64,000 nucleotides of DNA from Marispirochaeta sp. (GCA_963676835.2 CAXXFF010000001.1:800001-864000), one strand, 5' to 3'. Positions 20,893-40,157 are shown, counted from the first letter of the stretch. The notes: generated from the letters alone by a model not told the origin. A program made the numbers and translations.

Positions 20893-20898
20893 AGCATA

Positions 20899-21461: not shown

Positions 21462-21534
21462 GTTTTGCCTGGAAGTTGGAGTTTTCGCGGACACGGATAT
21501 GGGTGTTTAATTTGACGGTAGTTTCTTTGAAGAG
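21462..21534 (-). pseudogene. Degenerate remnant of the SH3b-encoding conserved block (copy D)
   Basis: gttttgcctggaagttggagttttcgcggacacggatatgggtgt...gtttctttgaagag aligns to 23722-23797 with substitutions and a short indel. Confidence 0.75.
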
Positions 21535-21537
21535 TAC

Positions 21538-21756: not shown

Positions 21757-22198
21757 GTAATCACCACCTGCAGCCATACAACAGGTTTTTCAACTCTTAT
21801 CTCAAGTATATTCTCATGCTTTCTGCCTTTATTTACAAGCTTAGCATCAACTGTTAAAAAAACATCAACCTTCAGTGTCTCCGCACAGGCAAGATGCAGG
21901 GCATCCATTGCACCGAAACCTAATGTTTCAAGTTCTTTTGCCCTGCTGATTTCCTTTTGTGTTGCGAAGATTTTCTCAGAAAGCCCTTCAAGAAAAGCAA
22001 GGACGCTATCTCTTTTTCTATATCCGGTGTCCTGTTTATTTCAAGATTCAAGACACTGCTCCCAACCCAGCAAACGTCACCTTGCCGTAAATGCTTCAAG
22101 TTAAACCGTATTGCTTCTGACTCAAGATGGATGCGTTCCTGCTCCTGATCATCAAAAGGTCTGTTTAAACAGCATACATCCAGATATACCCTTTTCAT
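21753..22198 (-). pseudogene. PIN-domain toxin, frameshifted
   Basis: MKRVYLDVCCLNRPFDDQ..., continues in another frame (...DALHLACAE...VFLTVD) after one missing base in the A5 run at 22013-22017. Confidence 0.8.
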
Positions 22199-22263
22199 CT
22201 CTACAATCATTTTACAGTTGAACTTTCCTATTCGTCTATCTTCTTAACAGTCACTACTCCGGC

Positions 22264-22287
22264 GGCCTGCGACTCCGCTCAGGCACC
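22264..22287. repeat. REP-like hairpin repeat, cluster 1
   Basis: ggcctgcgactccgctcaggcacc. Confidence 0.75.
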
Positions 22288-22312
22288 TCTGGTACGTCGC
22301 GGGGTGAGGGGT

Positions 22313-22595
22313 CCGACTCCTCATACACCGTAACCACCCCGTCGCCGTTATACCGCAGCTCTCCCTGCTCCTCGGCCAGGTCAAGGAAGGCACCGAAGCA
22401 CCAGCCGGAGAGGCCGTCGGATTCCCGGACTATGCGGTAGCTTTTTCCCGGTTCTCACCGGAGGTGTTCGCCCCAGGGGTCGATGGTCTCTTGGGGGCCG
22501 GAACGGTCAAGGACTTTTACCGTATCGCCCTATTCCAGGAAGCCCATGTGTTTTGCCTGGAGGTTGGGGTTTTCGCGGACACGGAAGTGGGTGTC
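22313..22595 (-). pseudogene. 3' remnant of the SH3b partner gene (copy C)
   Basis: Close match to 23504-23767, with an insertion near 22440-22462 and a mutated stop; 5' part absent. Confidence 0.85.
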
Positions 22596-22611: not shown

Positions 22612-23016
22612 TCAGGTATTTTCCAGAAGTGAAAGAAACTCGCTGTAATTTACGATTCGGATGTTTTCGAAGGGATCAAGTACAAGCAAATCTTCATCTC
22701 CGGAGACAATACAGTCAGCTTCAGCACTCAAAGCCATTTCCAGCAGATAGTTATCTTTTTTATCCCGACAGGCATCCGTATGCGCTGCAACTTTCACCCA
22801 CTCCGCCTTGCGGCTTAAATAATGCAGAAGGAACCTTTTCTTTTCCGGGGTAAAATATTTTTCCAATTTCGGACGTTCCAGTACTTCAAACAATTCTTCA
22901 AGTTGTTCATCACAGGTGAGTACCGTAACTGTGTTTTCGATTTTCCCAACAAGATTATCAAGACTTTTTCCAATCAGGAAGCTGATCCAGATATTAGTGT
23001 CGATAACGACCCGCAT
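22612..23016 (-). CDS. PIN-domain toxin (putative TA toxin)
   Basis: MRVVIDTNIWIS...CRDKKDNYLLEMA...IVSGDEDLL. Confidence 0.9.
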   Translation of the reverse strand: MRVVIDTNIWISFLIGKSLDNLVGKIENTVTVLTCDEQLEELFEVLERPKLEKYFTPEKKRFLLHYLSRKAEWVKVAAHTDACRDKKDNYLLEMALSAEADCIVSGDEDLLVLDPFENIRIVNYSEFLSLLENT

Positions 23017-23221
23017 AATACCTTTTTTCACGTACAGCTTCGACTTCAGTAGTTATTTCGTCCATCGACAGGGGAACATCTTCCATTTCATCGCGGAATT
23101 TCAGGAACTCCCCCTGCAAGGTCTGGCTATCCAGATAGCGGGCTAATTGCGCTTTTTCATCTGTTCCAAGTTGCTCCACAAGAGCTTTTACCTGGTTATA
23201 GGTCAGCTGTAACTGGGCCAT
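22994..23221 (-). CDS. Putative antitoxin of the PIN toxin
   Basis: 75 aa, overlaps the PIN start; SMDEITTEVEAVR motif. Confidence 0.72.
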   Translation of the reverse strand: MAQLQLTYNQVKALVEQLGTDEKAQLARYLDSQTLQGEFLKFRDEMEDVPLSMDEITTEVEAVREKRYYAGRYRH

Positions 23222-23316: not shown

Positions 23317-23476
23317 CTGCCTGCGACTCCGGCTGCCTTCGACTACGCTCAGGCACCACATCTACAGGGTGATTGCTGGAGGGACTGCCTTCGACTTCGC
23401 TGCCTTCGACTACGCTCAGGCACCGCGGCATAAAAGTGAATGCTGGCGGGACTGCCTTCGACTCCGCTCAGGCATC
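23317..23476. repeat. REP-like hairpin repeat, cluster 2 (3 full and 2 partial copies)
   Basis: CTGCCTTCGACT(A/C)CGCTCAGGCA at about 23333, 23400 and 23452. Confidence 0.85.
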
Positions 23477-23503
23477 GCTGGTATGACGCGGGGGTGAGGG
23501 CCC

Positions 23504-24787
23504 CTACTCCTCATACACCGTAACCATCCCATCCCCTTTATACCGCAGCTCACCCTGCTCCTCGGCCAGGTTTAGAAAGGCTCCGAAGCACCAGCCGGAG
23601 AGGCTGTCGGATTCCCGGACTATGCGGTACCAGGGGTGTTCGCCCCAGGGGTCGATGGTCTCTTTGGGGCCGGAGCGGTCAAGGACTTTTACCGTTTCGC
23701 CCTGTTCCAGGAAGCCCATGTGTTTTGCCTGGAGGTTAGGGTTTTCGCGGACACGGATGTGGGTGTCGGTTACTTTGGCGGTGGTTTCTTTGAAGAGGAG
23801 GTTGTGGGTCATTAGCCAGTCGCGGAGGGGGGTTGCGTCGACGAGGTAGGCTTTATTGTCTATGTCGCAGAGGCCCCATTTAAAGTTGGGAGAAAATCGT
23901 ATAGTTCTTGGTTTGCCCTGCACTGATATGTTCAGCTTCTTTGCTTGTTCCGGATGACCTATTGGCTGCATCCAGTAGTTTCCGTCAGGATATGATCCAC
24001 ATGGAACCAGTATATGTTCATTGCCAACAAACTGACCGCCGAAGTCTTCGTCTCCACTATCTCCATCTTCCGGATTTGGATGGCCATAACCGATTTCTTC
24101 TTTCTCATCCTCAATCCGGTAGAGAATAAAATCACGGTCCTCAAGCTTATAATCATCTGGTCGAGATGGTCTTTCATCAGTATCAATCAGCACGTATTCT
24201 TTGTCTGGGGATATTGCATGAATTATCCCATGAATAGGCAATCGACGGTTGGTCTCTGTGGCCAGGTTCAAACGGCTTATTGCACTGGGTCCGGAGTCAA
24301 GAGGCTTTAACTCATTCATCTGCAGGTAGCCCTCGTCGCTCTGGTAGTAGAAAAATGATCTCATCGGCCAGTACGTTAGATCCTGGTTCTCCTGTATGAA
24401 ACGATCAACAAAGGGATAGGCTTCAGATTCACTGGTTTTGAGATCATATACAACATTAGGCAAATTGCCTTCCTGTAGTGTAATAATTTTATTCTCCCAT
24501 GGCCCAAGAATCCTTGTGAAATGCACAAGTCCGAGCGAGCGGGAAGCCATAGATTCAAGGTCAATTATTCTGCAGTCAGTATCATTCATCCTTGGAGCGA
24601 ATCTAATAATTGCATATTTATTTGTTAATACCGAAGCATAAGTATCTGAACCGACTCTCTGATTCACCGATAATGATATTGCTTCCGGCTGCGCTACAGC
24701 AACTATCACAGGCATACAGAAAAAGGCTACAACCAGAAGTATCCGAATAGCAGTTCTTTTAACATTATCTTTACTAGAATTCCTCAT
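23504..24787 (-). CDS. Secreted protein with a variable N-terminal region and a C-terminal SH3b domain (cassette B partner, putative immunity protein)
   Basis: GGGGAGG RBS, signal peptide (ILLVVAFFCMPVIVAVA), C-terminus IRVRENPNLQAK...GETVKVL...WYRI...GWCFGAFL. Confidence 0.8.
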   Translation of the reverse strand: MRNSSKDNVKRTAIRILLVVAFFCMPVIVAVAQPEAISLSVNQRVGSDTYASVLTNKYAIIRFAPRMNDTDCRIIDLESMASRSLGLVHFTRILGPWENKIITLQEGNLPNVVYDLKTSESEAYPFVDRFIQENQDLTYWPMRSFFYYQSDEGYLQMNELKPLDSGPSAISRLNLATETNRRLPIHGIIHAISPDKEYVLIDTDERPSRPDDYKLEDRDFILYRIEDEKEEIGYGHPNPEDGDSGDEDFGGQFVGNEHILVPCGSYPDGNYWMQPIGHPEQAKKLNISVQGKPRTIRFSPNFKWGLCDIDNKAYLVDATPLRDWLMTHNLLFKETTAKVTDTHIRVRENPNLQAKHMGFLEQGETVKVLDRSGPKETIDPWGEHPWYRIVRESDSLSGWCFGAFLNLAEEQGELRYKGDGMVTVYEE

Positions 24788-24853
24788 AATTGTGCGGATC
24801 CTCCCCTCATCTCTTCCATAATACAACTTCGAATTTTCACCGACACGTTCTCC

Positions 24854-26556
24854 CTATTCCTCAAAGAAACGCTGAATATCCCAGCGGTCCTCTTTGAAAA
24901 TATCTGTAACAGTAATATCCTTCCCACTCAAAGGTATTTGTTCTTCAAGTTTATCATGAAAGTAGATCCAGCTATGCGCAGAAGGGTAACTATCGCTGAT
25001 TGGAAGCCATGGAGAACCGGGCGCTGATACATACGTATTAATCCATGCATCGCTTGTAACTATCTCCGGGTCACCATTAACTATTTCATAGTTATCCCTG
25101 ACAGTATCAAAACTTGCCCAATCACCAACAATTCTTGACCACCAGCCGTAGGTATTCCGGGTAATTACCGGTCCATCAGTTTCTTCATTATACTTCTGCA
25201 TAAAAAGAGATTCATCGAAGCAGGAGAGGGGATCTACTCTCTGCCATATAGTATTCCCATCGCCATCCAGGAACGTCTCGTATACCTCCAGATGAATATG
25301 GGCACCGGTAGAGACTACACCCACATTGCCGATATAACCAAGCCGGTCTCCTGCTTCAACCCGGATGAAGCTTGCATCCGTAATCTCAGAAGCCTCAATC
25401 CCACTTATCGGCTGCAGGGTATCGCCGGGAGTCCCAAGCATGGACCCGGTAGCTGCACCGTATTGCCCGGTATATGGAAAATTCGTTTGAGGTGCACCTT
25501 CATCTCTGTTTCCCAGATGACAAAAGAGATATACCCTGCCCTGCTTGGGATCATCCGGCCTGGTTACAAGCGCACCGATCCAGCCATAGGTATGAGAACT
25601 ATAGCCATAGAGTTCTCCGGTTTTGATACCTGAACCTGAGAAGACAGGTAAATTCTGTGGGGCATCCCATTCTATAGACCGCCACAAATAGAATATCCCA
25701 TCCTCCGGTGCCAGGAAAACGGCATTCTTCGTATCACCATCAATAGCAGAGTCCCCAGGCTCAGCTGCAGGATCATTCCAGTAGCTTAGAGCATCTCCCG
25801 CCCCTATTGCCGGTACAGAATCAAAAACTCCAACCCTGGAAAGGTCCACACCATAATGGTAGCGTAAAAGAATCCATTATTACTGGTATTTAAATTACGC
25901 CAACCCGTAAGCTGGGTGACCTTCGCATGATGCAGAGAAGGAAAGAGTGACTGAGGAGTTCTGTACGATAGGGAGGTTGAGGGCAGTTCCCGGTGGTAGT
26001 AATTTCCTTTATTTTCAATATCAGAAACAGATATTTCTCCACCAATAAGCTTGTCACGCATAAGGTCAACAGCTGTTTCAAGGTCACTTTCCTCACTATA
26101 GCCGGACGGGATCTCAACAACTTTCCGCGGAACCTCCGTCGCCGGCGGATAATAACTCCTCAACTTAACCTTATACTCATCCAGCAACTCCCACCCCGGC
26201 TTCTCCCCCGCCGCGCTCAGCTCCCCGGTCGCACTCTTCTTCAATAACCTTCGGGCATGGTATTTACCCGGTTCCAGGCTGAAGCCGCCGAAGCCCCCAG
26301 CGGGGTTGCCCCAGGTTGCAAGGCTTACCTGACGCAGGCTGCGGTTAACGGATATGAGGTAGATGCTGTTCATGTAGTCCTGTGAGGTGGCGCTGCTGTC
26401 GAGGCCGGCAAAGTTAGTGCGGACCACCACGCCGAGATGGGTTTCGCCGGTGTCGTTGGTACGCATAATGAGGTCCCCCGGGCGGATTTGGGAGAGGGAG
26501 GGGATTATGGTGGTTATGCGTTCGAGTTCCGGCGATACTGAGACTGTACTTTTCAT
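24854..26556 (-). pseudogene. M23 peptidase cassette B (about 567 aa once a 1-bp frameshift at 25866-25869 is repaired)
   Basis: ORFs 25804-26556 and 24854-25849 join to restore YHYGVD; YLFCHL, GDRLGYIGNVG..STGAHIHLEV, RVDPL; paralogue of 31676-33202. Confidence 0.82.
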
Positions 26557-26767
26557 GATGAGAAAATGGTATCATGCCTTTTCTATTACTTCCAGTATAA
26601 GCAGTTACAATCTTCCAAAACAGGTATGGCCATACAGTTTTAAAATAGCAATACGATCGACCTGTATGGGTAAAGCAACAATAAGCGGGAACTGCATGAT
26701 TCTACCGGGAATCTCTCAACGCATATCCGTCTTGCTCCCGCTTTCTATAGTGCAGTATACTAAAGGC

Positions 26768-27655
26768 ATGAATAGAAAACGTCCTTTAAACCCAATGGAT
26801 GACATCTTTGTCAAATATCTTCTGGGAACAGAAGAGAACAAAGATCTGCTTATAAGCTTTATCAACGCCGTATTGGACGAAAAAGGGTATGACCTCGTTT
26901 TGGATGTTGAGATTAAAAATCCCTTCAATCCGGCCAAGATTATTGAGTCCAAGTTTTCTGTTCTGGATATTAAGGCAAAAGACACCAAAGGCAGGATGAT
27001 CAACATAGAGGTACAGGTAAGCTCAGACCCCTATTTTGCATCGCGAAGTCTCTACTACTGGGCAAAGATTTACAGCGATCAACTGGAATCGGGGGATCAA
27101 TACAGGGAGCTGAATCAGACAATATGCATAAACCTTTTGTCGTTTAATCTCTTTGAAACCCAGGACAGTTTCCACAGCTGTTTTCAGATAACAGAAGTTG
27201 GAAAACCGGAAAATATACTTACAGAAGATCTTCAGATTCATTTTCTCGAAATAGAAAAACTGAAATCGCACCTGGAAAAACATGAGCCAAGGGATACCCT
27301 GGAAGGCTGGTGTTATTACTTCTTAAATGAAGGCCTGATCGAGGAGGACAAGATGCCCGTTTTACTGAAAAAGGACAAGATCTTTAACAAAGCCGGCTCA
27401 ATATACAGAAACTTTACCGCCGATGAAGAAAAAATGGAGCTTATTGAAGCCCGTGAAAAATGGCTTAAGGATTACAATTCCAAAATAGAGTCTGTACGTC
27501 AGGAAGGACGTCAGGAAGGTCGTCAGGAAGGTCAGCAAGAAGGACGTCAACAGGGCCATATGGAAGATGCCAGAAACCTGAAGCAGCTGGGGGTTGATCT
27601 GACTATTATTTCCAAGGCAACCGGGTTAGCCCTTGATGTTATTGAGAAATTGTAA
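26768..27655 (+). CDS. Rpn/YhgA-like PD-(D/E)XK nuclease (long form)
   Basis: NPMDDIFVKYLLG, LDIKAKD...INIEVQ, RSLYYWAKIYSDQL, EG-rich C-terminal repeats; start at ATG 26768. Confidence 0.92.
   Translation: MNRKRPLNPMDDIFVKYLLGTEENKDLLISFINAVLDEKGYDLVLDVEIKNPFNPAKIIESKFSVLDIKAKDTKGRMINIEVQVSSDPYFASRSLYYWAKIYSDQLESGDQYRELNQTICINLLSFNLFETQDSFHSCFQITEVGKPENILTEDLQIHFLEIEKLKSHLEKHEPRDTLEGWCYYFLNEGLIEEDKMPVLLKKDKIFNKAGSIYRNFTADEEKMELIEAREKWLKDYNSKIESVRQEGRQEGRQEGQQEGRQQGHMEDARNLKQLGVDLTIISKATGLALDVIEKL
27353..27655 (+). CDS. Putative in-frame nested short Rpn (RpnS-type antitoxin), 100 aa
   Basis: GAGGAGG at 27341-27347 followed 5 nt later by an in-frame ATG. Confidence 0.6.
   Translation: MPVLLKKDKIFNKAGSIYRNFTADEEKMELIEAREKWLKDYNSKIESVRQEGRQEGRQEGQQEGRQQGHMEDARNLKQLGVDLTIISKATGLALDVIEKL
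27497..27555 (+). repeat. 12-bp coding tandem repeat (RQEG x about 5)
   Basis: cgtcaggaagga cgtcaggaaggt cgtcaggaaggt cagcaagaagga cgtcaacaggg. Confidence 0.85.
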
Positions 27656-27672
27656 GGTTTAGTTGATTAGGA

Positions 27673-27745
27673 CTGCCTTCGACTCCGCTCAGGCACCGCG
27701 TCATAAAGGTGAATGCGGACCTGCCTTCGACTCCGCTCAGGCAGC
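27673..27745. repeat. REP-like hairpin repeat, cluster 3 (2 copies)
   Basis: CTGCCTTCGACTCCGCTCAGGCA at about 27674 and 27721. Confidence 0.85.
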
Positions 27746-28770
27746 GCTGGTATGACGCGGGGTGAGGGGCCCTACTCCTCATACACCGTAACCATCCCCT
27801 CCCCGTTATACCGCAGCTCACCCTGCTCCTCGGCCAGGTCAAGAAACGCTCCGAAGCACCAGCCGGAGAGGCCGTCGGATTCCCGGACTATGCGGTACCA
27901 GGGGTGTTCGCCCCAGGGGTCGATGGTCTCTTTGGGGCCGGAGCGGTCAAGGACTTTTACCGTTTCGCCCTGTTCCAGGAAGCCCATGTGTTTTGCCTGG
28001 AGGTTGGGGTTTTCGCGGACACGGATGTGGGTGTCGGTTACTTTGGCGGTGGTTTCTTTGAATAGGAGATTGTGGGTCATTAGCCAGTTGCGGAGGGGGG
28101 TTGAATCTACCAGATATGGAATATGGTCAACTTCGCACAGGGCCCGGGTAAAATCGGGGGAGAACCTGAAATTTGTCTGCTTGCCTTTAGCTGTAAGATT
28201 AAGCTTGACTGCATGTTCAGGATCACCGATATACTGCAAGAAATAATTTTTAGGATTGGTTTTTAAATAATCTTCCTTAGGAGTAAATGGTAGTAATACA
28301 TTCTCATTGCCGACAAAATGCCCTCCATAGTCAATATCACCAGGATCTCCACCACCCATGAAAGGCACACCATACCCTTGTACAATACTTCCTGTAGCAA
28401 TCTCATAAAGTATAAAATCTCTATCTTCAAGCTTATAAGATTCAAAGTTCTCACTTTGCTCGTCCTTATCAATCAGAAGATACTTCTTGTCTGGGGATAT
28501 AGCATGAATTACACCCGTAACAGGAAATGTAGATTCTTCGAAGGTAGAAAAATCCAAAACTCCAATTTTACTTGTGTACACCGGCCGAAAACGGACACCC
28601 ATTCCGGAGGAAAGCGGACAGTGATTCCGGGCAAAAACGGACACCTGTTCCGGCCGAAAACGGACAGTTTTTCCGGAGCGCCGGAATTGCTTTAACCTGA
28701 AATAAGAAATCCTCGATTAACACGAGCACTCTCGTCACAATAGCAAAACTACTATTTGACGGAGTACAGA

Positions 28771-30318
28771 ATGTCGAGAGCGAGGATTCATGTGAAACAC
28801 ATGCGTAAACTGCTTGCGCTCACGTACGAGAGCAAGCTGGGACTTCGGGATGTATCCCAACTGACCGGAGTATCTAAAACCACAGTCAGCGAATATCTGG
28901 TGCGATTCCGCCGCACCGGGATCAGCTATGCAGCAAGCCAAAAGCTTACCGATGAGCAGCTGCTTGGCCTGTTCGAAGAGAAAAAGCAGGAAGAAAGTGA
29001 GCAGTATACACAACTAACGACACTGTTCCCCGAGTACGCCAAACGGCTGAAACAGCGGGGGATGACGAAGCAGTTCCTATGGAAGGAATACCGTAGAAAG
29101 TATCCAAACGGATATAGATACAGTCAGTTCTGTCACCACTTTACGGTGTTTCTGGACTGCGGTGAGGTGACGATGCGTCAGCCCCACGAGCCTGGAGATA
29201 TGGCATATCTCGACTATGCCGGAGAAACGTTCCCTTACTATCCTGATGGAGATGAGCAGCGGGCACAAATATTCGTTGCGGTACTCGGAGCAAGTCAGCT
29301 GGCCTATGTTGAAGCAAGTGAGAGCCAGAAACAAGAGGCCTTTGTCCGCTCCACAGAACGGGCTCTGAGGTACTTCGGCGGGGTTCCGCGAGCTCTCGTC
29401 CCGGATAACCTGAAGGCGGCCGTGCTCAGTGCGAGTAAATATGAGCCGGAGCTTAATCCGTTGTTCGATGATTTTGCCGATTACTACCGGACGACGATAA
29501 TCCCCGCCAGGGCCTATAAACCGAAAGACAAATCCCTGGCGGAGAATGCCGTCAAGTTAACCTATCAGCGGATATTCGCCCCGCTGTACGGCAAGAGGTT
29601 CCATTCGTTGGCTGAGCTCAACCAGGCCATCGCAGAACTTCTTGAAGAACACAATACCCGGAAACTGACAAAGCTGCAAATCTCACGGCGTCAGTTGTTT
29701 GAAGAGATCGAACGGTCTGCGCTGAAGACGCTGCCGGGCGAACCGTATCCAATGAAATACTTCGAAACTCACAAGGTTGCACCGGACTATCACTTTATCC
29801 TGTCAAAAGATAAGCACTACTACTCTGTTCCCTGGCAGCTGAAGGGAGAACAGGTCAAAGTGATCTTTGATGAGCGAATTATAGCGGTATATCACAAGAA
29901 TGTACGCGTAGCCCAGCACCGCCGGAGCAGAAAGAAAGGACAATACTCCACACAGTCCGCACACATGCCCAGGCACCATCAGTTTGTTGAATCATGGTCG
30001 GCGGAGAAGTTTACCACCTGGGCTCAGTCGATTGGAGAAGAGACGTTCCTGGTGATTTCACATCTATTAAACAGCAAGCCACATGAGCAGCAGGCGTACA
30101 AATCCTGCCTTGGTGTGCTGAACCTGGCAAAGGATGCCGGATCACACCGGCTGAACTGGGCCTGCCGACGTGCGTTGAACTACTCGAGAATCAGTTATCG
30201 GGATGTTCGTGCATATCTGGATGAAATCATGCGACAAGAAAAGGATGAACAGCAGAACAAACAGGTGTTTCTCTTCGCCGATCACAAGAACCTGCGGGAT
30301 TCTGCAATCTACAAATGA
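28771..30318 (+). CDS. istA: IS21 transposase IstA
   Basis: N-terminal HTH; DYAG, VPDNLK, KPKDKSLAENAV; HYYSVP. Confidence 0.95.
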   Translation: MSRARIHVKHMRKLLALTYESKLGLRDVSQLTGVSKTTVSEYLVRFRRTGISYAASQKLTDEQLLGLFEEKKQEESEQYTQLTTLFPEYAKRLKQRGMTKQFLWKEYRRKYPNGYRYSQFCHHFTVFLDCGEVTMRQPHEPGDMAYLDYAGETFPYYPDGDEQRAQIFVAVLGASQLAYVEASESQKQEAFVRSTERALRYFGGVPRALVPDNLKAAVLSASKYEPELNPLFDDFADYYRTTIIPARAYKPKDKSLAENAVKLTYQRIFAPLYGKRFHSLAELNQAIAELLEEHNTRKLTKLQISRRQLFEEIERSALKTLPGEPYPMKYFETHKVAPDYHFILSKDKHYYSVPWQLKGEQVKVIFDERIIAVYHKNVRVAQHRRSRKKGQYSTQSAHMPRHHQFVESWSAEKFTTWAQSIGEETFLVISHLLNSKPHEQQAYKSCLGVLNLAKDAGSHRLNWACRRALNYSRISYRDVRAYLDEIMRQEKDEQQNKQVFLFADHKNLRDSAIYK

Positions 30319-30326
30319 GGTAACCG

Positions 30327-31067
30327 ATGAATAATAATCAGGCGACAATCAACAAGATGACCGAGATGCGTCTCCACGGAATGGTACAGGCCTTCCGTAC
30401 ACTGCAGGAGACCGGACGCCATATGGATCTTACAACCGATGAGGTTATCAGCTACCTTGTCGACTCAGAATGGGATGAGAAACACAATCGCCGACTGGCG
30501 CGCCTTGCCAATGCGGCCCGTTTCCGCTATAAGGCAGCGATTGAAGATATCGACTATACCTTCGACCGGAATCTGGACAAAAACCAGATCTTAAGACTTG
30601 CAGCCTGCTCCTGGATATCCCGGGGGCAGGACCTGCTCATCACGGGTCCGACCGGAGGAGGAAAAAGTTTTCTTGGATCGGCTTTCGGACATCAGGCATG
30701 TCAGTATGGGTATACCGTCGCTTACTTTTCCACAACGCGTTTATTCAATGAAATAGCGGCGGCAAGGGATGATGGAACCTACCTGAAGCACTTGTCACGC
30801 ATAATGAAAAACAAGCTGGTCATTATCGATGACTTCGGTCTGGAACCGCTGGAGCATACTGCACGGATGGCATTTCTTGAAATCCTTGAAGATCGACACC
30901 GGAGAAAATCTACGATAGTGATCGCCCAACAGCCGGTAGAAAACTGGCACAGCATTATCGGTGACCCCACGATTGCCGATGCCATAATGGACCGTCTTGC
31001 CTTTCATTCTCATAGAATTGTAATAACCGGGGACTCGGTAAGGAGGAAACTCTATGCTGTAGATTGA
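30327..31067 (+). CDS. istB: IS21 helper ATPase IstB
   Basis: GPTGGGKS, VIIDDFG, DPTIADAIMDRL, GDSVRR. Confidence 0.96.
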   Translation: MNNNQATINKMTEMRLHGMVQAFRTLQETGRHMDLTTDEVISYLVDSEWDEKHNRRLARLANAARFRYKAAIEDIDYTFDRNLDKNQILRLAACSWISRGQDLLITGPTGGGKSFLGSAFGHQACQYGYTVAYFSTTRLFNEIAAARDDGTYLKHLSRIMKNKLVIIDDFGLEPLEHTARMAFLEILEDRHRRKSTIVIAQQPVENWHSIIGDPTIADAIMDRLAFHSHRIVITGDSVRRKLYAVD

Positions 31068-31675
31068 CGCAAAACGGACACCTGATCATACTGAAGACGA
31101 GGATTTACTTCCTTCAGGCAGCTGTCCGTTTTCCGCCGGAATCACTGTCCGAAATCATCGGAATACACATACTAGGTAGAACATCTTCACTACTAATTAG
31201 AAACTGCTTTTGTATATAGCCGATATCATTCTGGTAATAGAATGTTCTGTGAATAACCTGCTTGATGGGACTATCGGAGGGCAAGGAGCTGATATCACGG
31301 GTTTCGGTGATTTCTCCTGTTTGGTAATCATAGGTAAGAAGTTTTTTCTTGTTATCTGATAGAATCAGATAAGTTTGCTCAAGAGGGCCAAGCCCCCATT
31401 TATAGCCAGTAAAAGGTATAATACTTAAGCTATTGTCTAAGAAATTTACTCTTGAGAAAGAACGTGGGGGATTCTGCCCACTTCCAAATGATCCAAAAAA
31501 ATCTTTTTGCGTATTCGAATATCTTAAAATATCAATATTCCCTGTATCTTTATACCCAGTAATTTTCTTTGACATCTGTGAGATTATAGAAAAATCAAAT
31601 TCCTGACTGAACAACGAAAAAGGGAAAAGCAACATTATTAAAGTTATAATTCCAATTGTATTTCGAAGTATTTTA

Positions 31676-33202
31676 TCATTCTGCATAATTTATCTCCCGC
31701 AGGCTATCCCATCTGTCGGATCTGAAAATATTGTCCATAGTTAAACTCTTATTATCCTCAATATTGACTTCATCAATACGCTGTTGAATGGCTTCCCTGA
31801 AGTATATCCAGGTGTGCTGCATACTGTATTGCTCAATCGGCTCAAGCCAGCCTCGTGTATAATCCGCACCTCCACCAAGGCTGTTTATCAGGATTCCAGC
31901 ATTGGATTCAGACTGAAAAAGCGACTTACACGCATACTCATCTTCATCATCCAATAAGCGTGCCCACCATCCGTATAATGGGTATGCATCAGACTGGCTC
32001 CCGGACTCAACCTCCCCCAAAAGATGGTCACTAAAACAGGACAGCGGATCCACTCTTAACCAGTCATTAGAATCACTGAAATACTCATACACCTCCAGAT
32101 GTGCATGAAATGGCACATCATCTCCCAAAACTCCGACATACGCCAGGGGGGTACCAGCAGTAACCATCTGAGGGTGAGTAGGATCAGGATATTCTGAGAA
32201 TGCAGAAAATTCCCCAAATACCGAATATTCACCATTGTAAGGAAGATTGGAAATATAACTGTTTCCCTTGTCTCCAAGGTGGGCAAAAAGATACACCCGT
32301 CCATCTGTAGGACTATCGGGTCGAGTAATCAGCACCCCAATTAAGCCATAGTATTTTCCACTATAGCTTCCAATAGAGTTATCTGAGTCTAATTCTCCCT
32401 GCATATCTCGAAGAAACAATTCAGAGGAAGTAGCCCATTCTTCTTCATCGTTTGATGGATTCCAGACATAAAATAGTCCATCCTCTGGTGCAAGAATCTT
32501 AACTTCCCGATTTTCACCATTCGTAGGAGCAATGGATGTAGACCAGCGAGATAAATCAACACCGGTATGGTAACTGAGAGAGTGGTTTGCAGCATTATCA
32601 GACCCTCTGTTTCTCCAGCCACTCAACTGCGTTACCAATGCAGGTATTTTCTGCAATGTATCCCCGGAGCCTGTACCGAGAAGAGCCTGATCAGCTCGAT
32701 AGCTGAACGAAGTAGCCGGCAATTCGCGATGGTAGTACTGATTTTTTTCTATTTCTGAACTTACTATAACCTTCCCAGAAACCAAATTCTCTACAATCTT
32801 CTTATTTTGATCAACTATAGTTACATCCGAGTTTTCATGCTCGACTTTTACAACACCCCGCGGCACCTCCGTCGCCGGCGGATAATAACTCCTCAATTTA
32901 ACCTTATACTCATCCAGCAACTCCCACCCCGGCTTCTCCCCCGCCGCGCTCAGCTCCCCGGTCGCACTCTTCTTCAAGAGCCGCCGGGCATGGTATTTAC
33001 CCGGTTCCAGGCTGAAGCCGCCGAAGCCCCCTGCGGGGTTGCCCCAGGTTGCAAGGCTCACCTGACGCAGGCTGCGGTTTACGGATATCAGGTAGATGCT
33101 GTTCATGTAGTCCTGGGTGGTGGCGCTGCTGTCGAGACAATTATTTTTTAAAGGTTTTTCGCTTCTCATTTTTTCATTGCTTTTTTTAATTAGATATCTC
33201 AA
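31676..33202 (-). CDS. M23 peptidase cassette A (homology to cassette B begins at 33136; 5' end non-homologous)
   Basis: YHTGVD (HxxxD), YLFAHL, AGTPLAYVG, HAHLEV (HxH), RVDPL. Confidence 0.8.
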   Translation of the reverse strand: MRYLIKKSNEKMRSEKPLKNNCLDSSATTQDYMNSIYLISVNRSLRQVSLATWGNPAGGFGGFSLEPGKYHARRLLKKSATGELSAAGEKPGWELLDEYKVKLRSYYPPATEVPRGVVKVEHENSDVTIVDQNKKIVENLVSGKVIVSSEIEKNQYYHRELPATSFSYRADQALLGTGSGDTLQKIPALVTQLSGWRNRGSDNAANHSLSYHTGVDLSRWSTSIAPTNGENREVKILAPEDGLFYVWNPSNDEEEWATSSELFLRDMQGELDSDNSIGSYSGKYYGLIGVLITRPDSPTDGRVYLFAHLGDKGNSYISNLPYNGEYSVFGEFSAFSEYPDPTHPQMVTAGTPLAYVGVLGDDVPFHAHLEVYEYFSDSNDWLRVDPLSCFSDHLLGEVESGSQSDAYPLYGWWARLLDDEDEYACKSLFQSESNAGILINSLGGGADYTRGWLEPIEQYSMQHTWIYFREAIQQRIDEVNIEDNKSLTMDNIFRSDRWDSLREINYAE

Positions 33203-33221: not shown

Positions 33222-33539
33222 TTATAAGAACAAGCTCAAGTAGGGAAACTGGCTCTCCTGATTATTATACCACCTGCTTTTTTCTGCAAAATTAACCACC
33301 TTTCCAGTGGCCAGATAATATAAATGCTCCGGTGCGATATCCAGTTCACCATCCCCCCAAACAAGAGTTCCAAACTCTACCCGGTAGGACAGGAAATACT
33401 CTTTATCTGCAAATCTTTCAAATACATTGTTCTGGTTTAAATACGAAGACAAATCTACAAAACCGGAATTACCATCATTGAAAGAAAGCTTCAGCCTGTA
33501 ATTATCTATATACTCTGCAGTCTTGATCTCAAAATACAT
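33222..33539 (-). CDS. DUF2442 antitoxin-like protein
   Basis: YIDNYRLKLSFNDG...GTLVWGDGELDIAPEHLY. Confidence 0.88.
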   Translation of the reverse strand: MYFEIKTAEYIDNYRLKLSFNDGNSGFVDLSSYLNQNNVFERFADKEYFLSYRVEFGTLVWGDGELDIAPEHLYYLATGKVVNFAEKSRWYNNQESQFPYLSLFL

Positions 33540-33548
33540 CTCTGTCTC

Positions 33549-33808
33549 CTATTGAAGCGGCTCTATTTTAAAAAGCTCTTGTTTCTACTCGACCCGGTTC
33601 CATTCCTCCAGAAGTTCATCTTTATGGATTACAGCCCATTCAACTACAAGAGCAAGCGCTTTGGGAGAAAGGGAACACTGAAGGACACGAAGATCATTAA
33701 TAGCGATAAGCGCTGATGCTCATTGTAATAAGCATGAAAACGCGGAGGATTATGTTCATCATAAAACATTCGTATAAATATTCCGTAGAAAACATTTATC
33801 GTCGGCAT
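33549..33808 (-). pseudogene. DUF4160 toxin pseudogene
   Basis: MPTINVFYGIFIRMFYDEHNPPRFHAYY; frameshift near 33713, in-frame TAG at 33585-33587; downstream frame gives VVEWAVIHKDELLEEW...KIEPLQ. Confidence 0.82.
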
Positions 33809-33863
33809 AATATGAATATATCATCTGAGACAGAATATGTCTCTTTATGTTTTCCTTCCATTT

Positions 33864-33944
33864 GCTGCTTTCGACTGCGGCTTCCTTCGACACCGCTCAG
33901 GCACCATTGGTGCGACGCGGGGTGCGGGTCCTTCGACTACGCTC
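33864..33944. repeat. REP-like hairpin repeat, cluster 4 (degenerate)
   Basis: ctgctttcgactgcgg, ccttcgacaccgctcaggcacc, ccttcgactacgctc. Confidence 0.75.
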
Positions 33945-33961
33945 TAACACATAAAAACTCT

Positions 33962-34790: not shown

Positions 34791-37031
34791 ATGATGAAAC
34801 TATATGCGTATCGCAACTATATTTGTGCTCTTTCCATAATTCTCCCGGTGTGGCTTTCTGCCGCACCGTCCCTGGACCGTCTGACCTTCCGCAACCAGCC
34901 GGTCACCGACATTCTCATGGCCCTGGCAGACATAGGCAATATCTCCATAATCCCCGACGAAACCGTCGAAGGCAGCGCAACCTACCAGTTCAACACCCTG
35001 GATTTTACCACCGCACTGCAGGTATTCCTCACCACCTACAAACTCTACAGCGAAGAACGGAACGGTGTGCTTTATGTGTCACGTATTCACTCTGCATATG
35101 ACAGCGCTGCAGGACAGGTTTCCTTGCATGGGGAGGATGTGGAACTGCGCCTTCTGGTGCGTGCCCTCTCCCGGGCAATGGGCAAAACCATCCTCTTCGA
35201 TGCCCTGCCCAATGAACGAATCAGTGTGCATATCGATTCCCTTCCGCCGGAAAAGGCTCTGGAAGTGCTAACCGCCCGGCTTTCGAACCACCAGTTGGAA
35301 GCAAAGGATGACTTTTTCTACATCCGCCGGCAGGAGAGCCAGACGGGAAGCACTCCCAGAAGAGGCAGCCTGGTGCAGCAGAACGCTGACGGCAGCTATA
35401 CAGTGGATCTTGAGCGGGTCCGCTTCCGGGACATTCTTGCGGAGTTGTTTACCGCTCAGAACAAAGAGTACAGCCTGCTCATGCGGGGGGATTCGGTGCT
35501 GGAGGAGCTGCGCTTTGCGGACAAATCCTTTGACGAATTGCTTGGCCTTGTTCTGGAGCAGGCAAACGGCGACTATCAGATTGCGGGAAACATCTACTAT
35601 ATATTTGAAATCCAGCGGAGGGATGTGCTTAAACGACTGAAGGCTACCGTCACCATCCCCCTAAACCATATTCCTGCCCAGTCTGTTGCCGGGCTTCTGC
35701 CCTCCGATTTGAGCAGTGCCAACCTGATGAAGGTGGATGCCGAATCCAACACCATTATTTTACGGGGAAGTCCTGCGGAGACAGGTCCGTTGGAAGAGTT
35801 TATCCGCTCCCTGGACAAGCCCCTTGAAAACCTTGCCTACCGGCGCTACGACCTGGGCTATGTGGATGTTACCAGCGCCCTGAATCTGCTGCCTGCCCGG
35901 TTCAGCTCTCTGGGGCCCAAGGTTATCAACGATACCAACTCCTTTGTTGTTGCCGTAAGTCCGAATCAGGAAAAGGAGCTGACTGTTTTTCTCTCCACCC
36001 TGGATGTCCCCGCAGGGCAGTATCCGGTACACCTGAAGTTTATTACCTCCGAAACCCTGCTGAAATCCCTGCCCCCGGCGGCAGCAAAGGAGGAGATTGT
36101 CTCCACCGTGGACCCCACCCTGATCTTCTACACCGGCCCGGAAAACCGCAGGGAGCAGTTTTTAGAACAGCTTGCCCTTATAGACCAGCCGGTGCCCCAG
36201 ATTCGCTACGACCTTCTGGTAATTCAGTATCAGAACGGCGAGAGCCTCAACTGGAGTTCCAACTACGAAAACAAGGTATCAGAGGAGGGCCAGGAGACTA
36301 CTTTCCTGGGCTCCATCGGCTCCCTTTTAAGCCTTAATTTCGACATTGTCTCCAACTTCGGCTACCTCTTTGCGGTGGATCTTAGCCTGGACTTGAGTGA
36401 AACAAAGGCCACTATCATGGCGGACACCACCCTCAACGGACTTTCCGGGGAGGACCTCAAGTTTCAGAACACCAACACCTACCGCTACCGGGACTACGAA
36501 ATAGATGCGGATACCGGGGAAATACAGTCCACCGGGGTTACCCGGGAACTCACCTCGGGGCTCATAATAACCCTCAACGGCTGGGTCTCCGGGGACGGCA
36601 TGATTACCATGGACATTGCCGCCACCGTAAGCCGCCAGGGCTCCGAGTCATCCACCACCAATCCGCCTACCACCACGGAAAAGGTGGTCTCCACCCATGT
36701 GCGAACTCCTTCGGGAAAGCCGGTGGTCATCGGCGGGCTTATTCAGCAGGATGAGGATGTTTCCATAAGCAAAACTCCCTTTTTAGGCGACATTCCCCTT
36801 ATAGGGCGACTGTTTCAGAGCCGCACCGAAAGCACCGACACCACCGAGATGGTTATCTATGTGGTACCCCACGTAGAGCATCCGGAAAAAGAGAAGGTGA
36901 GCTCCATGGAGGAGGCCCGCCGCCTCTATGCCAAATATCTGCTTCCCGAAGAAGAGCAGAACAGAGACCAGAACAGAGAAAAGAATACAGAGACAGAAGA
37001 TAGAGCAGCAATAAAAGAGGCAGCGGAATGA
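34791..37031 (+). CDS. gspD: Secretin (GspD/PilQ family)
   Basis: N-domain repeats; C-terminal secretin signature VIGGLI...PFLGDIPLIGRLF. Confidence 0.88.
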   Translation: MMKLYAYRNYICALSIILPVWLSAAPSLDRLTFRNQPVTDILMALADIGNISIIPDETVEGSATYQFNTLDFTTALQVFLTTYKLYSEERNGVLYVSRIHSAYDSAAGQVSLHGEDVELRLLVRALSRAMGKTILFDALPNERISVHIDSLPPEKALEVLTARLSNHQLEAKDDFFYIRRQESQTGSTPRRGSLVQQNADGSYTVDLERVRFRDILAELFTAQNKEYSLLMRGDSVLEELRFADKSFDELLGLVLEQANGDYQIAGNIYYIFEIQRRDVLKRLKATVTIPLNHIPAQSVAGLLPSDLSSANLMKVDAESNTIILRGSPAETGPLEEFIRSLDKPLENLAYRRYDLGYVDVTSALNLLPARFSSLGPKVINDTNSFVVAVSPNQEKELTVFLSTLDVPAGQYPVHLKFITSETLLKSLPPAAAKEEIVSTVDPTLIFYTGPENRREQFLEQLALIDQPVPQIRYDLLVIQYQNGESLNWSSNYENKVSEEGQETTFLGSIGSLLSLNFDIVSNFGYLFAVDLSLDLSETKATIMADTTLNGLSGEDLKFQNTNTYRYRDYEIDADTGEIQSTGVTRELTSGLIITLNGWVSGDGMITMDIAATVSRQGSESSTTNPPTTTEKVVSTHVRTPSGKPVVIGGLIQQDEDVSISKTPFLGDIPLIGRLFQSRTESTDTTEMVIYVVPHVEHPEKEKVSSMEEARRLYAKYLLPEEEQNRDQNREKNTETEDRAAIKEAAE

Positions 37032-38422
37032 GAACTGCCGACTTACAGAGTTTCGCCCCCCTTCCCGAAGGGCCGGATCAGTATTCCACCTCTTTTATTC
37101 AGGCCAACAAGGTCCTCAAGCTGAAAGAGACAGCAGAACAGGTAACTGCCGGAGCCGTTGAACCTGCGGAAACTCTGACGAAGCTGCTGGAAGATTTTCA
37201 TGGAAAAAGAGTAGAGATTCTGCTCCTGGACTCCGCGGAGTTTTCCGCCTTCCTGGGACGACGCCTGGGAGGAGACTCTTCTGGCAGTGGCCCCACCGAT
37301 GCCTCCGGCCTGGATCTTGAAGCCCTTGCCTCGGATGCGCCGGTAATTAATCTGGTAAACAGTATCTGCATCGACGCCATTCGGGCGGGTGCTTCGGATA
37401 TTCACCTGGAGGCCTTTGCGGAGGAGACGGCAGTCCGCTTCCGCATCGACGGGGTGCTGCAGACCTCCCGGACTCTACCAGCAGAGCGTTTTCCCGCCCT
37501 GGCCTCCCGTATAAAGGTAATGGCCGGGCTGAACCTTATGGAACGGCGGCGCCCCCAGGACGGCCGCATAAGCGTAAACCTGGCCGGCCGCAGCATGGAT
37601 ATGCGGGTCTCCTGCGTGCCCACCTCTGCGGCACCGGGAGCAGAATCAATCGTTCTAAGACTCTTCAATAACGAAAACAGCACTTTTACCCTGGAGGACC
37701 TGGGCCTGCCGGAAGACTGCAGCACCGGCATAGAGGAGCTGCTTGCCTCCCCCCACGGTATGATTCTGGTTACCGGGCCAACGGGTTCGGGCAAAACAAC
37801 CACCCTCAATGCCATGGTGCGCCGCCTGGACCGCAGCCGGGACAAGATTATTACCCTGGAAGATCCGGTGGAGTACCGCATAAAGGGTATAACCCAGATA
37901 CAGACGGACGAAAAAATCGGCCTCAGCTTCAGCAGCCTCCTGCGCCGGATTCTGCGTCAGGACCCCAATGTGATTTTAGTAGGAGAAATACGGGACGCGG
38001 AAACCGCGGAACTGGCGGTGCGGGCGGCCCTGACGGGCCACCTGGTTCTCTCCAGTCTGCACACCAACGATGCAGTCTCTGCGGTAAGCCGCCTGGAAGA
38101 CCTGGGTGTTGAACCCTTTCTTATTGCCGCGGTACTTCGGGGGGTTATCGCGCAGCGCCTGACCCGCAGGCTGTGTTCCGCCTGCGCAGGAGAAGGCTGC
38201 GGGGAGTGCGGAAACATGGGCTATAAGGGCCGAATGGCTGCGGTGGAGTTTTTCTCCCTCGATGAGGAGCTTGCAAAAATGGTCAGCACCGGTGCCGATG
38301 AGACAGAACTTAAGGATTACCTAGCAGACCGGGGAATGATCAGCCTCAAGGAGCGGGGGCTGGATATTGCGGCTTCCGGGCTCTCGAGCTTTCAGGAGCT
38401 CAAACGGGCGGGAGTGCTCTGA
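37028..38422 (+). CDS. gspE: T2SS ATPase GspE/PulE
   Basis: ASDIHLE, PQDGR, GPTGSGKTTT, LRQDPNVILVGEIRD, AALTGHLV. Confidence 0.93.
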   Translation: MRTADLQSFAPLPEGPDQYSTSFIQANKVLKLKETAEQVTAGAVEPAETLTKLLEDFHGKRVEILLLDSAEFSAFLGRRLGGDSSGSGPTDASGLDLEALASDAPVINLVNSICIDAIRAGASDIHLEAFAEETAVRFRIDGVLQTSRTLPAERFPALASRIKVMAGLNLMERRRPQDGRISVNLAGRSMDMRVSCVPTSAAPGAESIVLRLFNNENSTFTLEDLGLPEDCSTGIEELLASPHGMILVTGPTGSGKTTTLNAMVRRLDRSRDKIITLEDPVEYRIKGITQIQTDEKIGLSFSSLLRRILRQDPNVILVGEIRDAETAELAVRAALTGHLVLSSLHTNDAVSAVSRLEDLGVEPFLIAAVLRGVIAQRLTRRLCSACAGEGCGECGNMGYKGRMAAVEFFSLDEELAKMVSTGADETELKDYLADRGMISLKERGLDIAASGLSSFQELKRAGVL

Positions 38423-38424
38423 TA

Positions 38425-39642
38425 ATGCCAGTCTACCAGACCCGCTCTGCCGACCCGCTGGGAAAGCGACTTACCCGCACCATAGCCGCGGAATCCCGAA
38501 CCGCAGCGGCAGCCCTTGCAACTGAGGACGGCTCTATGCTGATCTCTTTGAAAGAGATCGTCTCCGCAAGGGGCAAAAAGCCTTCAGCCGCCTTTGTGCT
38601 TGAACTTACCCAGACCCTGGCGCTGCTGTCACAGTCCGGGCTTGATATACGGGAAAGCCTGGAGATTGCGGGTACTCTTTTTCCAGAAGGACGCTCCGGA
38701 GGGAAAAGGAAAAGAGAAGGGAAAAAGCGAAACGGACGAACCGTTGCAGCCCTCGCATCCGCACTGGACCGGGGAGACTCATTCTCTACTGCGGCAGAAG
38801 CGGAAAACTTTCCCCCAATCTACTCGGGACTGATAAAAATCGGCGAACGCACAGGTTCTATGTCGGTAATTTTGCCCGCCATGGCCTCCTATCTGAAAAG
38901 CCGCAAAGAGATGAAGGATAAACTGCTCAATGCCATGCTCTACCCCTCTCTGGTATTAAGTGCGGTACTTATCGGTATTCTTGTTCTGATGATTGTTGTG
39001 GTGCCGAAGATGGGAGAGATTCTATCAGGCTTCGGCAGTTCACCTGAAATGACAGGGGCTATGGAACTGCGCATGCACGCGAGCATGCTCATCGGCGGCA
39101 TTGCCGCAGGCGGTCTCATTCTCTCCATGATACTGTTTATACTGCTTCGCCGTACATCACGGCAGTTCAGACTGAAAAGCGACGGAATACTGGTAACCCT
39201 GCCCCTCCTTGGACCGCTTATCACCCTGCAGGAGACGGTTAATATTGTCTTTGCTCTGGAAGTACTCACCGGTGCGGGGATCAGCCTGGAGGATGCCCTG
39301 GAACAGGCGTCACCGGTTACCAGGAACCTGTCACTCTCAAATGGACTGCTTGAGGCCCGGGAGAAAATCATCCAGGGGCACCGGCCTTCCGAAGCCTTCC
39401 GTGCCGCCGGGGTATTTCCCCTGCGGCTGGTACGCTGGCTGGCCCTGGGAGAGCGGACAGGCCGGGTGGAAGAGGTATTTTCCGGCCTGAAAACCTGGTA
39501 CCAGGGAGAGTTCGAAACCCTGCTTGTCCGCATTACCGGCCTTGCGGAACCTGCAATGATCATAATCACCGGCCTGCTGCTTTTGGCGGGCATAATCATC
39601 TTTGTCCTGCCCCTGCTTTCGGGGTTCGGAAATCTTTTTTGA
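38425..39642 (+). CDS. gspF: T2SS inner-membrane platform GspF
   Basis: GERTG twice, AMLYP, LAEP; three TM segments. Confidence 0.9.
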   Translation: MPVYQTRSADPLGKRLTRTIAAESRTAAAALATEDGSMLISLKEIVSARGKKPSAAFVLELTQTLALLSQSGLDIRESLEIAGTLFPEGRSGGKRKREGKKRNGRTVAALASALDRGDSFSTAAEAENFPPIYSGLIKIGERTGSMSVILPAMASYLKSRKEMKDKLLNAMLYPSLVLSAVLIGILVLMIVVVPKMGEILSGFGSSPEMTGAMELRMHASMLIGGIAAGGLILSMILFILLRRTSRQFRLKSDGILVTLPLLGPLITLQETVNIVFALEVLTGAGISLEDALEQASPVTRNLSLSNGLLEAREKIIQGHRPSEAFRAAGVFPLRLVRWLALGERTGRVEEVFSGLKTWYQGEFETLLVRITGLAEPAMIIITGLLLLAGIIIFVLPLLSGFGNLF

Positions 39643-39695
39643 GGAACAGAATGAAAAACCTGAAGAATCTGCATAATCTGTATAAAGAGAAGAAC

Positions 39696-40157
39696 ATGTC
39701 TGCAAAGGCAGTCAAAGTTGTAAAAGAACCGAAAAAAGGCGAAGAGGGCTGGACCTTTATAGAGACCATTATAGTCCTTGCCATAGTACTGACCCTCTCC
39801 ACCACCGTGGGATTTATGGGGTACCGCTACATCGGCAAGGCAAAAACCGCGGCAGCCCGCAACCAGATAGAAGCGGTCAATCTGGCCCTGAACGCCTATC
39901 TCTTTGACTGCGGCAGATATCCCACCGCCGACCAGGGGCTTGAGGCATTGTACGCAAAACCCTCATCGTCCCCTATCCCCGACGGCTGGGCCGGCCCCTA
40001 CATGGAAAAGAAGGTGGTTAATGATCCCTGGGGCTCTCCCTATATCTATATCGTTCCGGGCCCCGACGGCCTGCCCTACGGTATCAGCAGCTATGGTTCC
40101 GACGGCGCAGAGGGAGGAGACGGCGAAGACCGGGACATTAGCAGCTGGAGCAATTGA
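39696..40157 (+). CDS. gspG: Major pseudopilin GspG
   Basis: G|WTFIE prepilin site, GRYPTADQGLEAL, WAGPY, DPWGSPY, SYGSDG; start uncertain. Confidence 0.92.
   Translation: MSAKAVKVVKEPKKGEEGWTFIETIIVLAIVLTLSTTVGFMGYRYIGKAKTAAARNQIEAVNLALNAYLFDCGRYPTADQGLEALYAKPSSSPIPDGWAGPYMEKKVVNDPWGSPYIYIVPGPDGLPYGISSYGSDGAEGGDGEDRDISSWSN

Follow-up and report, generated by a model that had tools for sequence, protein, structure and literature searches.

What are two neighbouring gene pairs with nearly identical ends and strongly diverged middles, lying beside the type II secretion genes of a spirochaete? We examined this question in a window of 64,000 nucleotides (C1:800001-864000; window positions are counted from its first letter) of a Marispirochaeta genome, G000, which is 97% complete and comprises 4 contigs. 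The window holds cassettes A and B, each consisting of a gene for a peptidase-like protein followed by a gene for a partner protein. Cassettes C and D lie at a second locus of G000, and A2 and D2 are the copies of the congeneric sister genome G002, a single contig. The original prediction, made from the sequence alone, described the two pairs as a toxin-immunity cassette library bracketed by homology arms. Its observations were partly confirmed and its interpretation as a cassette library was partly supported; the region is probably an orphan toxin-immunity cassette array of an undescribed spirochaetal polymorphic toxin family, for which both activity and immunity are predicted.

Arms and cores of the two cassettes

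The arms were recovered as described. The 5' arms (26126-26403 and 32859-33136) were 95.7% identical over 278 columns, with GC contents of 0.60 and 0.62, and the 3' arms (23452-23835 and 27721-28103), which reach past the stop codon, were 96.6% identical over 384 columns, with GC contents of 0.60 and 0.61. The diverged middle is AT-richer, as had been stated: the GC content of the core was 0.45 in B and 0.40 in A without its insertion sequence (IS), compared with 0.505 for the window, and the cores are saturated. The M23 ligands occur in the same order in both first genes, with HxGVD, YLFAH, HxHLE and RVDPL at 32569, 32293, 32107 and 32056 in A and at 25858, 25531, 25300 and 25240 in B. The C-terminal SH3b domain was matched by Pfam SH3_3 in both partners (43.4 and 39.7 bits; cut-off 27), and the proposed Sec signal agrees with an N-terminal hydrophobic stretch in both (KD9 3.2 and 3.4); all signal-peptide calls in this work follow a crude N-terminal hydrophobicity rule (KD9), without SignalP. 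The two tandem pairs are real but not intact, as A is shortened at its 5' end and split by an IS21-family element, B is frameshifted, and an Rpn gene lies between them.

Recombination through the arms

We determined the identity at fourfold-degenerate sites among the four G000 copies. For the 5' arm the values were 0.86-0.95 and for the 3' arm 0.87-0.95, whereas those of the cores were 0.21-0.43. The arms are tracts homogenised at synonymous sites and not merely a conserved protein, which bears out their proposed role as recombination sites, and the homogenised arms and saturated cores exclude an ordinary uniform duplication. In the 5' arm, 8 of 14 informative sites united the copies by genome, setting the two of G002 apart from the four of G000. 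In the cores, by contrast, the grouping followed cassette type, 87 sites joining A and A2 and 39 joining D and D2. Moreover, a 2,048-bp block of the window was 95.5% identical to C1:558181-560216, and the identity beyond both arms was 0.5-0.7. Because this block, which was copied between the loci, starts and ends in the arms, both arms served as crossover points.

The cassettes of the two species are closer to each other than their neighbours are. The fourfold-site identity of the cores was 0.79 for A/A2 and 0.86 for D/D2, compared with 0.37-0.65 in 18 neighbouring orthologues (one wrong-frame row of 19 was dropped), and the synonymous divergence (dS) of these cassette pairs was 0.19-0.30, compared with 0.74 for gspD. 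These results indicate transfer between the two species, or acquisition from common donors, after the split. The ratio of nonsynonymous to synonymous divergence (dN/dS) was 0.25-0.28, which shows that selection acted on the cassette proteins, possibly back in the donors. The arms, the copied block and the cross-species comparison together represent recombination at conserved junctions, as expected of a polymorphic toxin. A G-quadruplex explanation for the arms was also considered and was rejected, because G002 does not retain the G-runs seen in the 5' arm of G000.

Third-codon signature of the arms

Third codon positions in the arms (23504-23839, 27772-28107, 26125-26556 and 32858-33136) are C-rich first and G-rich last. 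Among 3,411 open reading frames (ORFs), the four 3' arms took ranks 1-4 for C3/(C3+T3), where the figure denotes the codon position, and three 5'-arm ends took ranks 1-3 for G3. The C3 jump recurs in other lineages in YARHG, discoidin and SH3b arms (loci L065, L039 and L036), at 0.50-0.60 compared with mostly 0.03-0.15. A genome-wide scan for C-to-G skew switches in 130-nt windows placed the arms outside the top 40, whereas the codon-position version ranked them top. The next-highest G3 windows of G000 lie in an ORF at C1:453684-455378, where the window resembles an HsdS-type repeat, and in Rhs core ends at C3:670968-686710, a region that includes a 3,357-aa Rhs-like ORF; G000 holds other swap-junction systems.

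Peptidase-like tips and partner proteins

The publications cited here by PMC number were available as excerpts, and statements on them refer to those excerpts. The hallmark of M23 enzymes is given as H(x)nD and HxH motifs with an upstream His (PMC9662197). These motifs are present in the tips, including those of the window genes, and the residues H, D, H, H and H were invariant in 12 of 12 aligned tips. The PDB profile matches of the tip were M23 enzymes (best E 3.6e-5), and Atlas gave 10/10 for M23 identity. An AlphaFold model of the whole cassette protein (predicted local distance difference test, pLDDT, 37) had its best Foldseek match among M23 enzymes (E 0.003) and was not relied on.

In regards to the partner, the model of partner D (pLDDT 75) consists of a beta-propeller followed by SH3b, with a Z of 14.5 to the TolB propeller. 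The N-terminal hydrophobic stretch was found in every one of the 32 partners that accompany wall-hydrolase tips (a row with incorrect coordinates was left out) and in neither of the two ORFs after the restriction endonuclease (REase)-like tip of L042. The gene position and these signal-like starts fit a role of the partner in immunity. Partners of the same group share their 3' ends: the shared end is YARHG in genome G408 (96-99% nucleotide identity), SH3b in L036-L038, a half-propeller in genome G505 (605 bp, 97%), and discoidin in L039 and L041, where 18 of 23 fourfold sites agree in an otherwise saturated pair. No profile match was obtained between SH3b-type and YARHG-type partners (probability 0.3). 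The complex prediction for tip D with partner D (score 0.00, mark 0.32) counts neither way.

Full-length parent genes in other spirochaetes

A longer parent gene had been anticipated; it exists in other spirochaetes, with a constant body and variable C-terminal domains, but was not found in G000 or G002. Four longer relatives of 1,439-1,733 aa were obtained among 8,000 scored longer proteins, and the parent loci number 13 from genomes and 5 from metagenomes (one duplicate), all named ones being spirochaetes. The parents are secreted-type proteins of 1,100-1,900 aa comprising a constant body, a dead NlpC/P60-like domain and a variable tip, and 66 of 75 long members have a signal-like start. The body matched no Pfam or NCBIfam model. 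In the internal domain, the catalytic Cys after G-V-D was absent in 104 of 111 proteins; its likeness to NlpC/P60/CHAP was indicated by Atlas features (0.93) and by weak Pfam matches of the active tips. The 5' arm of the cassettes corresponds to the second half of this dead domain.

The constant-domain profile matched 182 clusters at 50% identity, and the tips were counted among the 150 matches listed. Of these, 129 reach the arm end and 105 carry a tip of at least 120 aa; these tips comprise 61 of NlpC/P60 type (53 with a DC-type motif), 30 of M23 type, 5 that are probably cut short and 9 others. These 9 include the TNT-like tip P0110, with a Pfam E of 0.008, below the cut-off, and the REase-like tips P0018 and P0135, which were recognised by eye from their motifs. 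Searching PDB sequences with the constant-domain profile, the partner profile and P0110 returned nothing useful. In a class-wide sample, the constant domain was present in 14 of 401 genomes and an M23 tip in 8 of 401; a phylum-wide sample gave 3 of 401.

The gene upstream of the parent encodes 3,000-5,000 aa with TIG, He_PIG, Big_13, OmpL47 and PQQ-propeller matches. Three full operons occur in G408, and its L065 and L066 parents are 100% identical to residue ~500, 91-96% to ~800 and 31-40% in the tip. Each of the G408 operons opens with its own lipoprotein N-acyltransferase gene and a gene for a secreted protein of 440-460 aa, both ahead of the giant gene (L067:8319-11287, L068:6282-9208 and L069:7223-10149). 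In G505 the order is giant, parent and partner, then four truncated tips, three of them with their own partner; a second G505 locus reads parent, partner, orphan tip, partner. The 5'-truncated tip/partner cassettes that had been expected downstream of a parent are thereby seen at the family level. The family as a whole shows sequence-level features of a polymorphic toxin: a constant body with variable tips, an export signal on the full-length protein, and truncated cassettes downstream. A parent in the same genome as the window cassettes was found in neither G000 nor G002.

Second locus, related genomes and linkage to type II secretion

The second G000 locus (C1:555.5-563.6 kb), 270 kb from the window array, contains two intact cassettes, D and C, with an Rpn gene between them; tip C lies at C1:556942-558612 and tip D at C1:561109-562737. 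Cassettes matched 4 of the 41 genomes searched and are present in 2 of the 6 genomes of the genus. G002 carries an A-like and a D-like cassette, both beside gspD, and no cassette at its secA site, so that the D-type cassette sits at different loci in the two species. A search with the partner gave only 5 copies, all in G000 and G002, among 3,372 candidates.

The gspDEFG genes of the window are the only such cluster found in G000. Linkage was counted for loci with a flank of at least 6 kb (16 loci in 12 genomes), and a type II secretion system (T2SS) adjoins the locus in 6 of 12 genomes and at 6 of 16 loci, namely in G000, G002, G436, G408, G505 and the genome of L037. This gene linkage suggests T2SS export of the parent toxin. 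In the congeners G001 and G003 (L071:6078-15102 and L072:746-13664), the genes that face gspD head-to-head are tatC, a small tat-like gene, one resembling radical-SAM genes and one for a 2,030-aa Rhs protein, after which orphan Rhs pieces follow; the N-terminus of the Rhs protein resembles a Tat signal and then a Cys-rich stretch. In G436 (L088:1554-18560), an orphan M23 tip without arms and its SH3b partner lie beside the T2SS cluster, and next come a PKD protein and an Ig/Rhs protein of 3,349 aa.

Organization of the window

The coordinates of the features are given in Table 1. The 51 codons that open the other copies are missing from the cassette A peptidase, whose TTG start (33202) falls in unrelated sequence. 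The IS21-family element that splits partner A is flanked by a 4-bp target duplication, has 9 copies in the genome that are 99.7-100% identical and is recently active; 23-bp tandem repeats lie inside its left end. In regards to the cassette B frameshift, a 2,377-base contig of run X1 was identical (0 differences), and the contigs of runs X2 and X5 carry one extra base at the site; the break is therefore strain-specific. The X1 loose ends at 23530, 23722 and 23797 correspond to known copies of the assembly, and no hidden parent junction was seen among them.

Table 1. Features of the cassette array and its flanks, in window coordinates.
Feature	Position	Strand	Basis
Cassette A 5' arm (C-terminal half of catalytically dead NlpC/P60-like domain)	32858..33136	-	
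Cassette A variable core, M23-like metallopeptidase tip, all five active-site residues kept	31676..32857	-	
Cassette A partner, N-terminal piece, signal-peptide-like start	31170..31686	-	
IS21-family element splitting partner A (istA 28756-30318, istB 30327-31067)	28573..31169	+	
Cassette A partner, C-terminal piece; 3' arm (SH3b) 27772-28107	27772..28572	-	
3' arm A beyond stop, two copies of short repeat	27670..27771	.	
Rpn (PD-(D/E)XK) gene with 4-residue C-terminal repeats, spacer between A and B	26768..27655	+	
2,048-bp block (3' arm, repeats, Rpn, promoter-like site, 5' arm)	26125..28172	.	
Extended -10-like site TGnTAnnAT, 9 nt ahead of ATG	26566..26574	-	read by eye
Cassette B 5' arm, own ATG	26125..26556	-	
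Cassette B variable core, M23-like tip, frameshifted near 25868-25871	24854..26124	-	
Cassette B partner, intact (signal peptide, beta-propeller, SH3b); 3' arm 23504-23839	23504..24787	-	fold modelled on cassette D homologue
Cluster of cassette-end short repeats	23317..23480	.	
PIN-domain toxin and small upstream ORF (type II toxin-antitoxin-like), between arm remnants	22612..23220	-	
Degenerate 3'-arm remnant, 86-88% to full arms	22265..22595	-	
Short 3'-arm remnant, 87-88%	21462..21534	-	
Type II secretion genes gspD, E, F, G, head-to-head with array	34791..40157	+	

The spacing between the ATG and the TGnTAnnAT site was identical by eye in all five cassettes, out of six, that keep the ATG. 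The promoter scan did not list the site in front of cassette B, and the promoter/terminator scan as a whole was near chance (27 compared with 21.2, and 19 compared with 12.8). Short repeats at the cassette ends occur at 23317-23480, 27670-27771, 22256-22310 and 33864-33931. All 10 exact genome matches of the 15-mer of this repeat lie at the two cassette loci in one orientation; 28 matches were found genome-wide with one mismatch, and the reversed control gave 0. The predicted folding of the repeats was no better than that of shuffled sequences (z +1.69), and Rfam gave no match between window positions 19000 and 35000. The 3'-arm remnants are interleaved with PIN, BrnT/BrnA and DUF4160/DUF2442 modules, and Rpn proteins are described as toxin-antitoxin (TA) anti-phage modules (PMC10400941). 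TA and defence modules are dense at 19274-22210 and 33222-34651; they comprise BrnT/BrnA, PIN, a Sir2 gene, two DUF4160/DUF2442 pairs, one of which is frameshifted, and a PIN-like pair that also carries a frameshift.

Proposed mechanism and alternative explanations

The full operon, as read from its sequence, encodes a giant secreted Ig/beta-propeller protein, a toxin with a swappable tip and a secreted beta-propeller partner. The tips are predicted to be mostly peptidoglycan hydrolases (active NlpC/P60 or M23) and rarely nuclease- or TNT-like, and the C-terminal domain of the partner is of a type that binds cell wall or glycans (SH3b, YARHG or discoidin). We suppose that the toxin is exported through the adjoining T2SS and displayed on the giant protein, that the tip lyses neighbouring cells, and that the propeller, anchored at the peptidoglycan of the producing cell, inhibits the cell's own tip. 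A cassette is the unit of tip and partner, with the end of the constant body as its 5' arm and the anchor domain of the partner as its 3' arm. Because arms lie at both ends of the unit, crossovers could duplicate, delete, move or import whole units; the footprints of recombination are read in the sequence, and the mechanism is presumably of RecA type. In G000, the transcript would supply the secreted partner and the short peptidase would remain in the cytoplasm. Given the own ATG and the extended -10-like site, the array most likely serves at present both as an immunity bank against the M23 tips of neighbours and as a stock for exchange between species. Window copies A and B are decaying and those at C1:555-563 kb are intact, and the TA modules in the spacers may oppose loss by arm-to-arm deletion. 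A tentative extension, which we consider possible but doubtful, is that the system is a T2SS-exported, giant-adhesin-mounted spirochaete wall weapon whose pairs circulate between species as self-expressing two-arm cassettes without a parent, and that the strand-asymmetric codon signature of the arms marks sites where exchange is very frequent, perhaps by a dedicated mechanism.

Several results weigh against the reading of the region as an orphan toxin-immunity array. The Pfam M23 model (PF01551) scored 14-27 bits (intact copies 18-20), below its cut-off of 28.7, and gave 0 Pfam families for M23 at the cut-off in proteins A and B. The truncated cassette peptidases have no signal peptide (KD9 1.4-1.5). 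Neither the parent body (four queries) nor the giant gene (five queries) was found in G000 or the single-contig G002, and in the arm the nearest long relative reaches an identity of only 40-46%. This identity is too low for recombination, so that reloading cannot be shown for this lineage, and the cassettes here form a library without a known gene to reload. The T2SS is not seen nearby at 10 of the 16 loci with flanks, G000 and G002 are not independent in this count, and the L037 call comes from tblastn matches to two window genes with no Pfam family. In regards to the partners, they diverge faster than the tips (identities of 58% compared with 88% for A/A2 and 68% compared with 91% for D/D2) and are mosaic, part of the D2 partner being nearer to B than to D. 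The co-divergence of peptidase and partner, which had been suggested as a check, was not seen among the six close cassettes (rho 0.22, p 0.24), and the rho of 0.84 over 11 tip/partner pairs could arise from linkage and kinship alone. Furthermore, a single locus, L042, shows the switch to a non-secreted partner.

The behaviour of the partners would also fit a co-secreted targeting subunit, a variable propeller lectin with a wall anchor resembling a split lysostaphin or umbrella toxin, in which the same shuffling would diversify the target range. Mosaic partners that evolve faster than the tips agree with this explanation, as do constant ends that bind peptidoglycan or glycan (SH3_3, YARHG and NADase-type discoidin), and umbrella toxins are described as targeting via diversified lectins (PMC13274773). 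We consider it unlikely, since the tip precedes the partner with touching ends and the partner is kept behind most orphans, and since the REase-like tip is followed by non-secreted ORFs. Moreover, tip relatedness is mirrored by partner relatedness in G505, where partners are akin if their tips are and unrelated if they are not, and Tsi1, the immunity protein that inhibits the wall hydrolase Tse1, is a partial beta-propeller (PMC3391265). The truncated genes might instead have been domesticated as self-standing genes, either for a lysis-released bacteriocin or for a wall-remodelling enzyme with its regulator, expanded by arm-mediated duplication. The common start codon behind TGnTAnnAT in the five ATG-keeping copies, with ten codons that cannot be aligned to parents, speaks for domestication, together with the low dN/dS, the intact catalytic residues and the failure to find a parent in two near-complete genomes. 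It is quite unlikely in view of the missing signal peptide on the short peptidases, the restriction of the cassettes to two genomes of the genus, the setting among TA modules, IS and Rhs remnants, and the two broken copies out of four; the purifying selection may stem from the donors.

An ordinary tandem duplication of an autolysin operon, with the arms kept by protein constraint alone, is favoured by the 3' arm being a folded SH3b domain that is conserved in distant relatives too. This explanation is hardly credible, as it is already contradicted by the homogenised synonymous sites and post-stop DNA, the sharp edges and the saturated cores; the conflicting arm and core trees, the arm-bounded block copied 270 kb away and the existence of parents with alternative tips also oppose it. 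The orphan toxin-immunity array remains the preferred reading.

Comparison with known systems

Few descriptions exist of how free-living and gut spirochaetes combat other bacteria, and the family may offer a lineage-specific delivery module. Its roughly 90 divergent peptidoglycan hydrolase tips, among the matches listed, might include new specificities, and the propellers would represent a class of inhibitors or targeting subunits for M23 and NlpC/P60 enzymes. The array is also a natural test case for whole-pair exchange via two coding arms, and it offers a codon-level footprint of recombination tracts; if this holds true, swap junctions could be found from sequence alone. No publication joining polymorphic toxin, spirochaete and M23 was met, and by title and start of abstract none of those found describes the operon, although supplements may list some of the proteins. 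The statement that no described system has such an architecture holds for the combination of features, which was not met in the literature searches, but not for its parts, as esaG and tipC have 3' homology blocks in immunity genes (PMC9484751) and M23 effectors are known from type VI secretion (PMC6833914).

These esaG and tipC arrays of type VII secretion systems resemble the spirochaete cassettes in having homology blocks, one of which extends over the gene end and downstream DNA, through which genes are gained, deleted and made mosaic. In those arrays it is immunity genes alone that are shuffled, whereas the spirochaete arms, one in the toxin and one in the partner, enclose the whole pair. 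The Acinetobacter Tpe groups of type VI secretion systems (T6SS) with M23 (PMC6833914) and the Tse1/Tsi1 pair (PMC3391265) likewise combine a wall hydrolase (M23 or papain-like) with an immunity protein bearing a signal peptide. The spirochaete loci read show no VgrG or T6SS context, and they differ in their signal-bearing parent and cassette arrays.

The classical polymorphic toxins (Zhang et al. 2012, PMC3482391) share with the spirochaete family the constant body, the variable tip, the adjacent immunity candidate and standalone cassettes, and NlpC/P60 and REase tips are listed in both. In contrast, the spirochaete body has no Pfam or NCBIfam model, and M23 tips, the giant Ig/OmpL47/PQQ-propeller gene, the dead NlpC/P60 junction and the anchor-bearing propeller partners were not met in the excerpts of that work. 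Neisseria MafB/MafI (PMC4287609) is similar in its Sec signal, its lineage-restricted constant domain, its upstream accessory gene and its downstream C-terminal cassettes with or without a start codon. Unlike MafB as described there, the parents scanned contain no DUF1020, their tips are mostly wall hydrolases and they show T2SS linkage; unlike MafI, the partner is a secreted propeller of 320-600 aa with a constant 3' anchor. Rhs orphan arrays follow the same orphan logic, and they occupy the same chromosomal site in G001, G002 and G003, but the parents scanned have no RHS/YD repeats, and the same scans detect true Rhs neighbours. Judged by its genes, the spirochaete system appears to work like MafB or Rhs orphan arrays and to be neither MafB nor Rhs.

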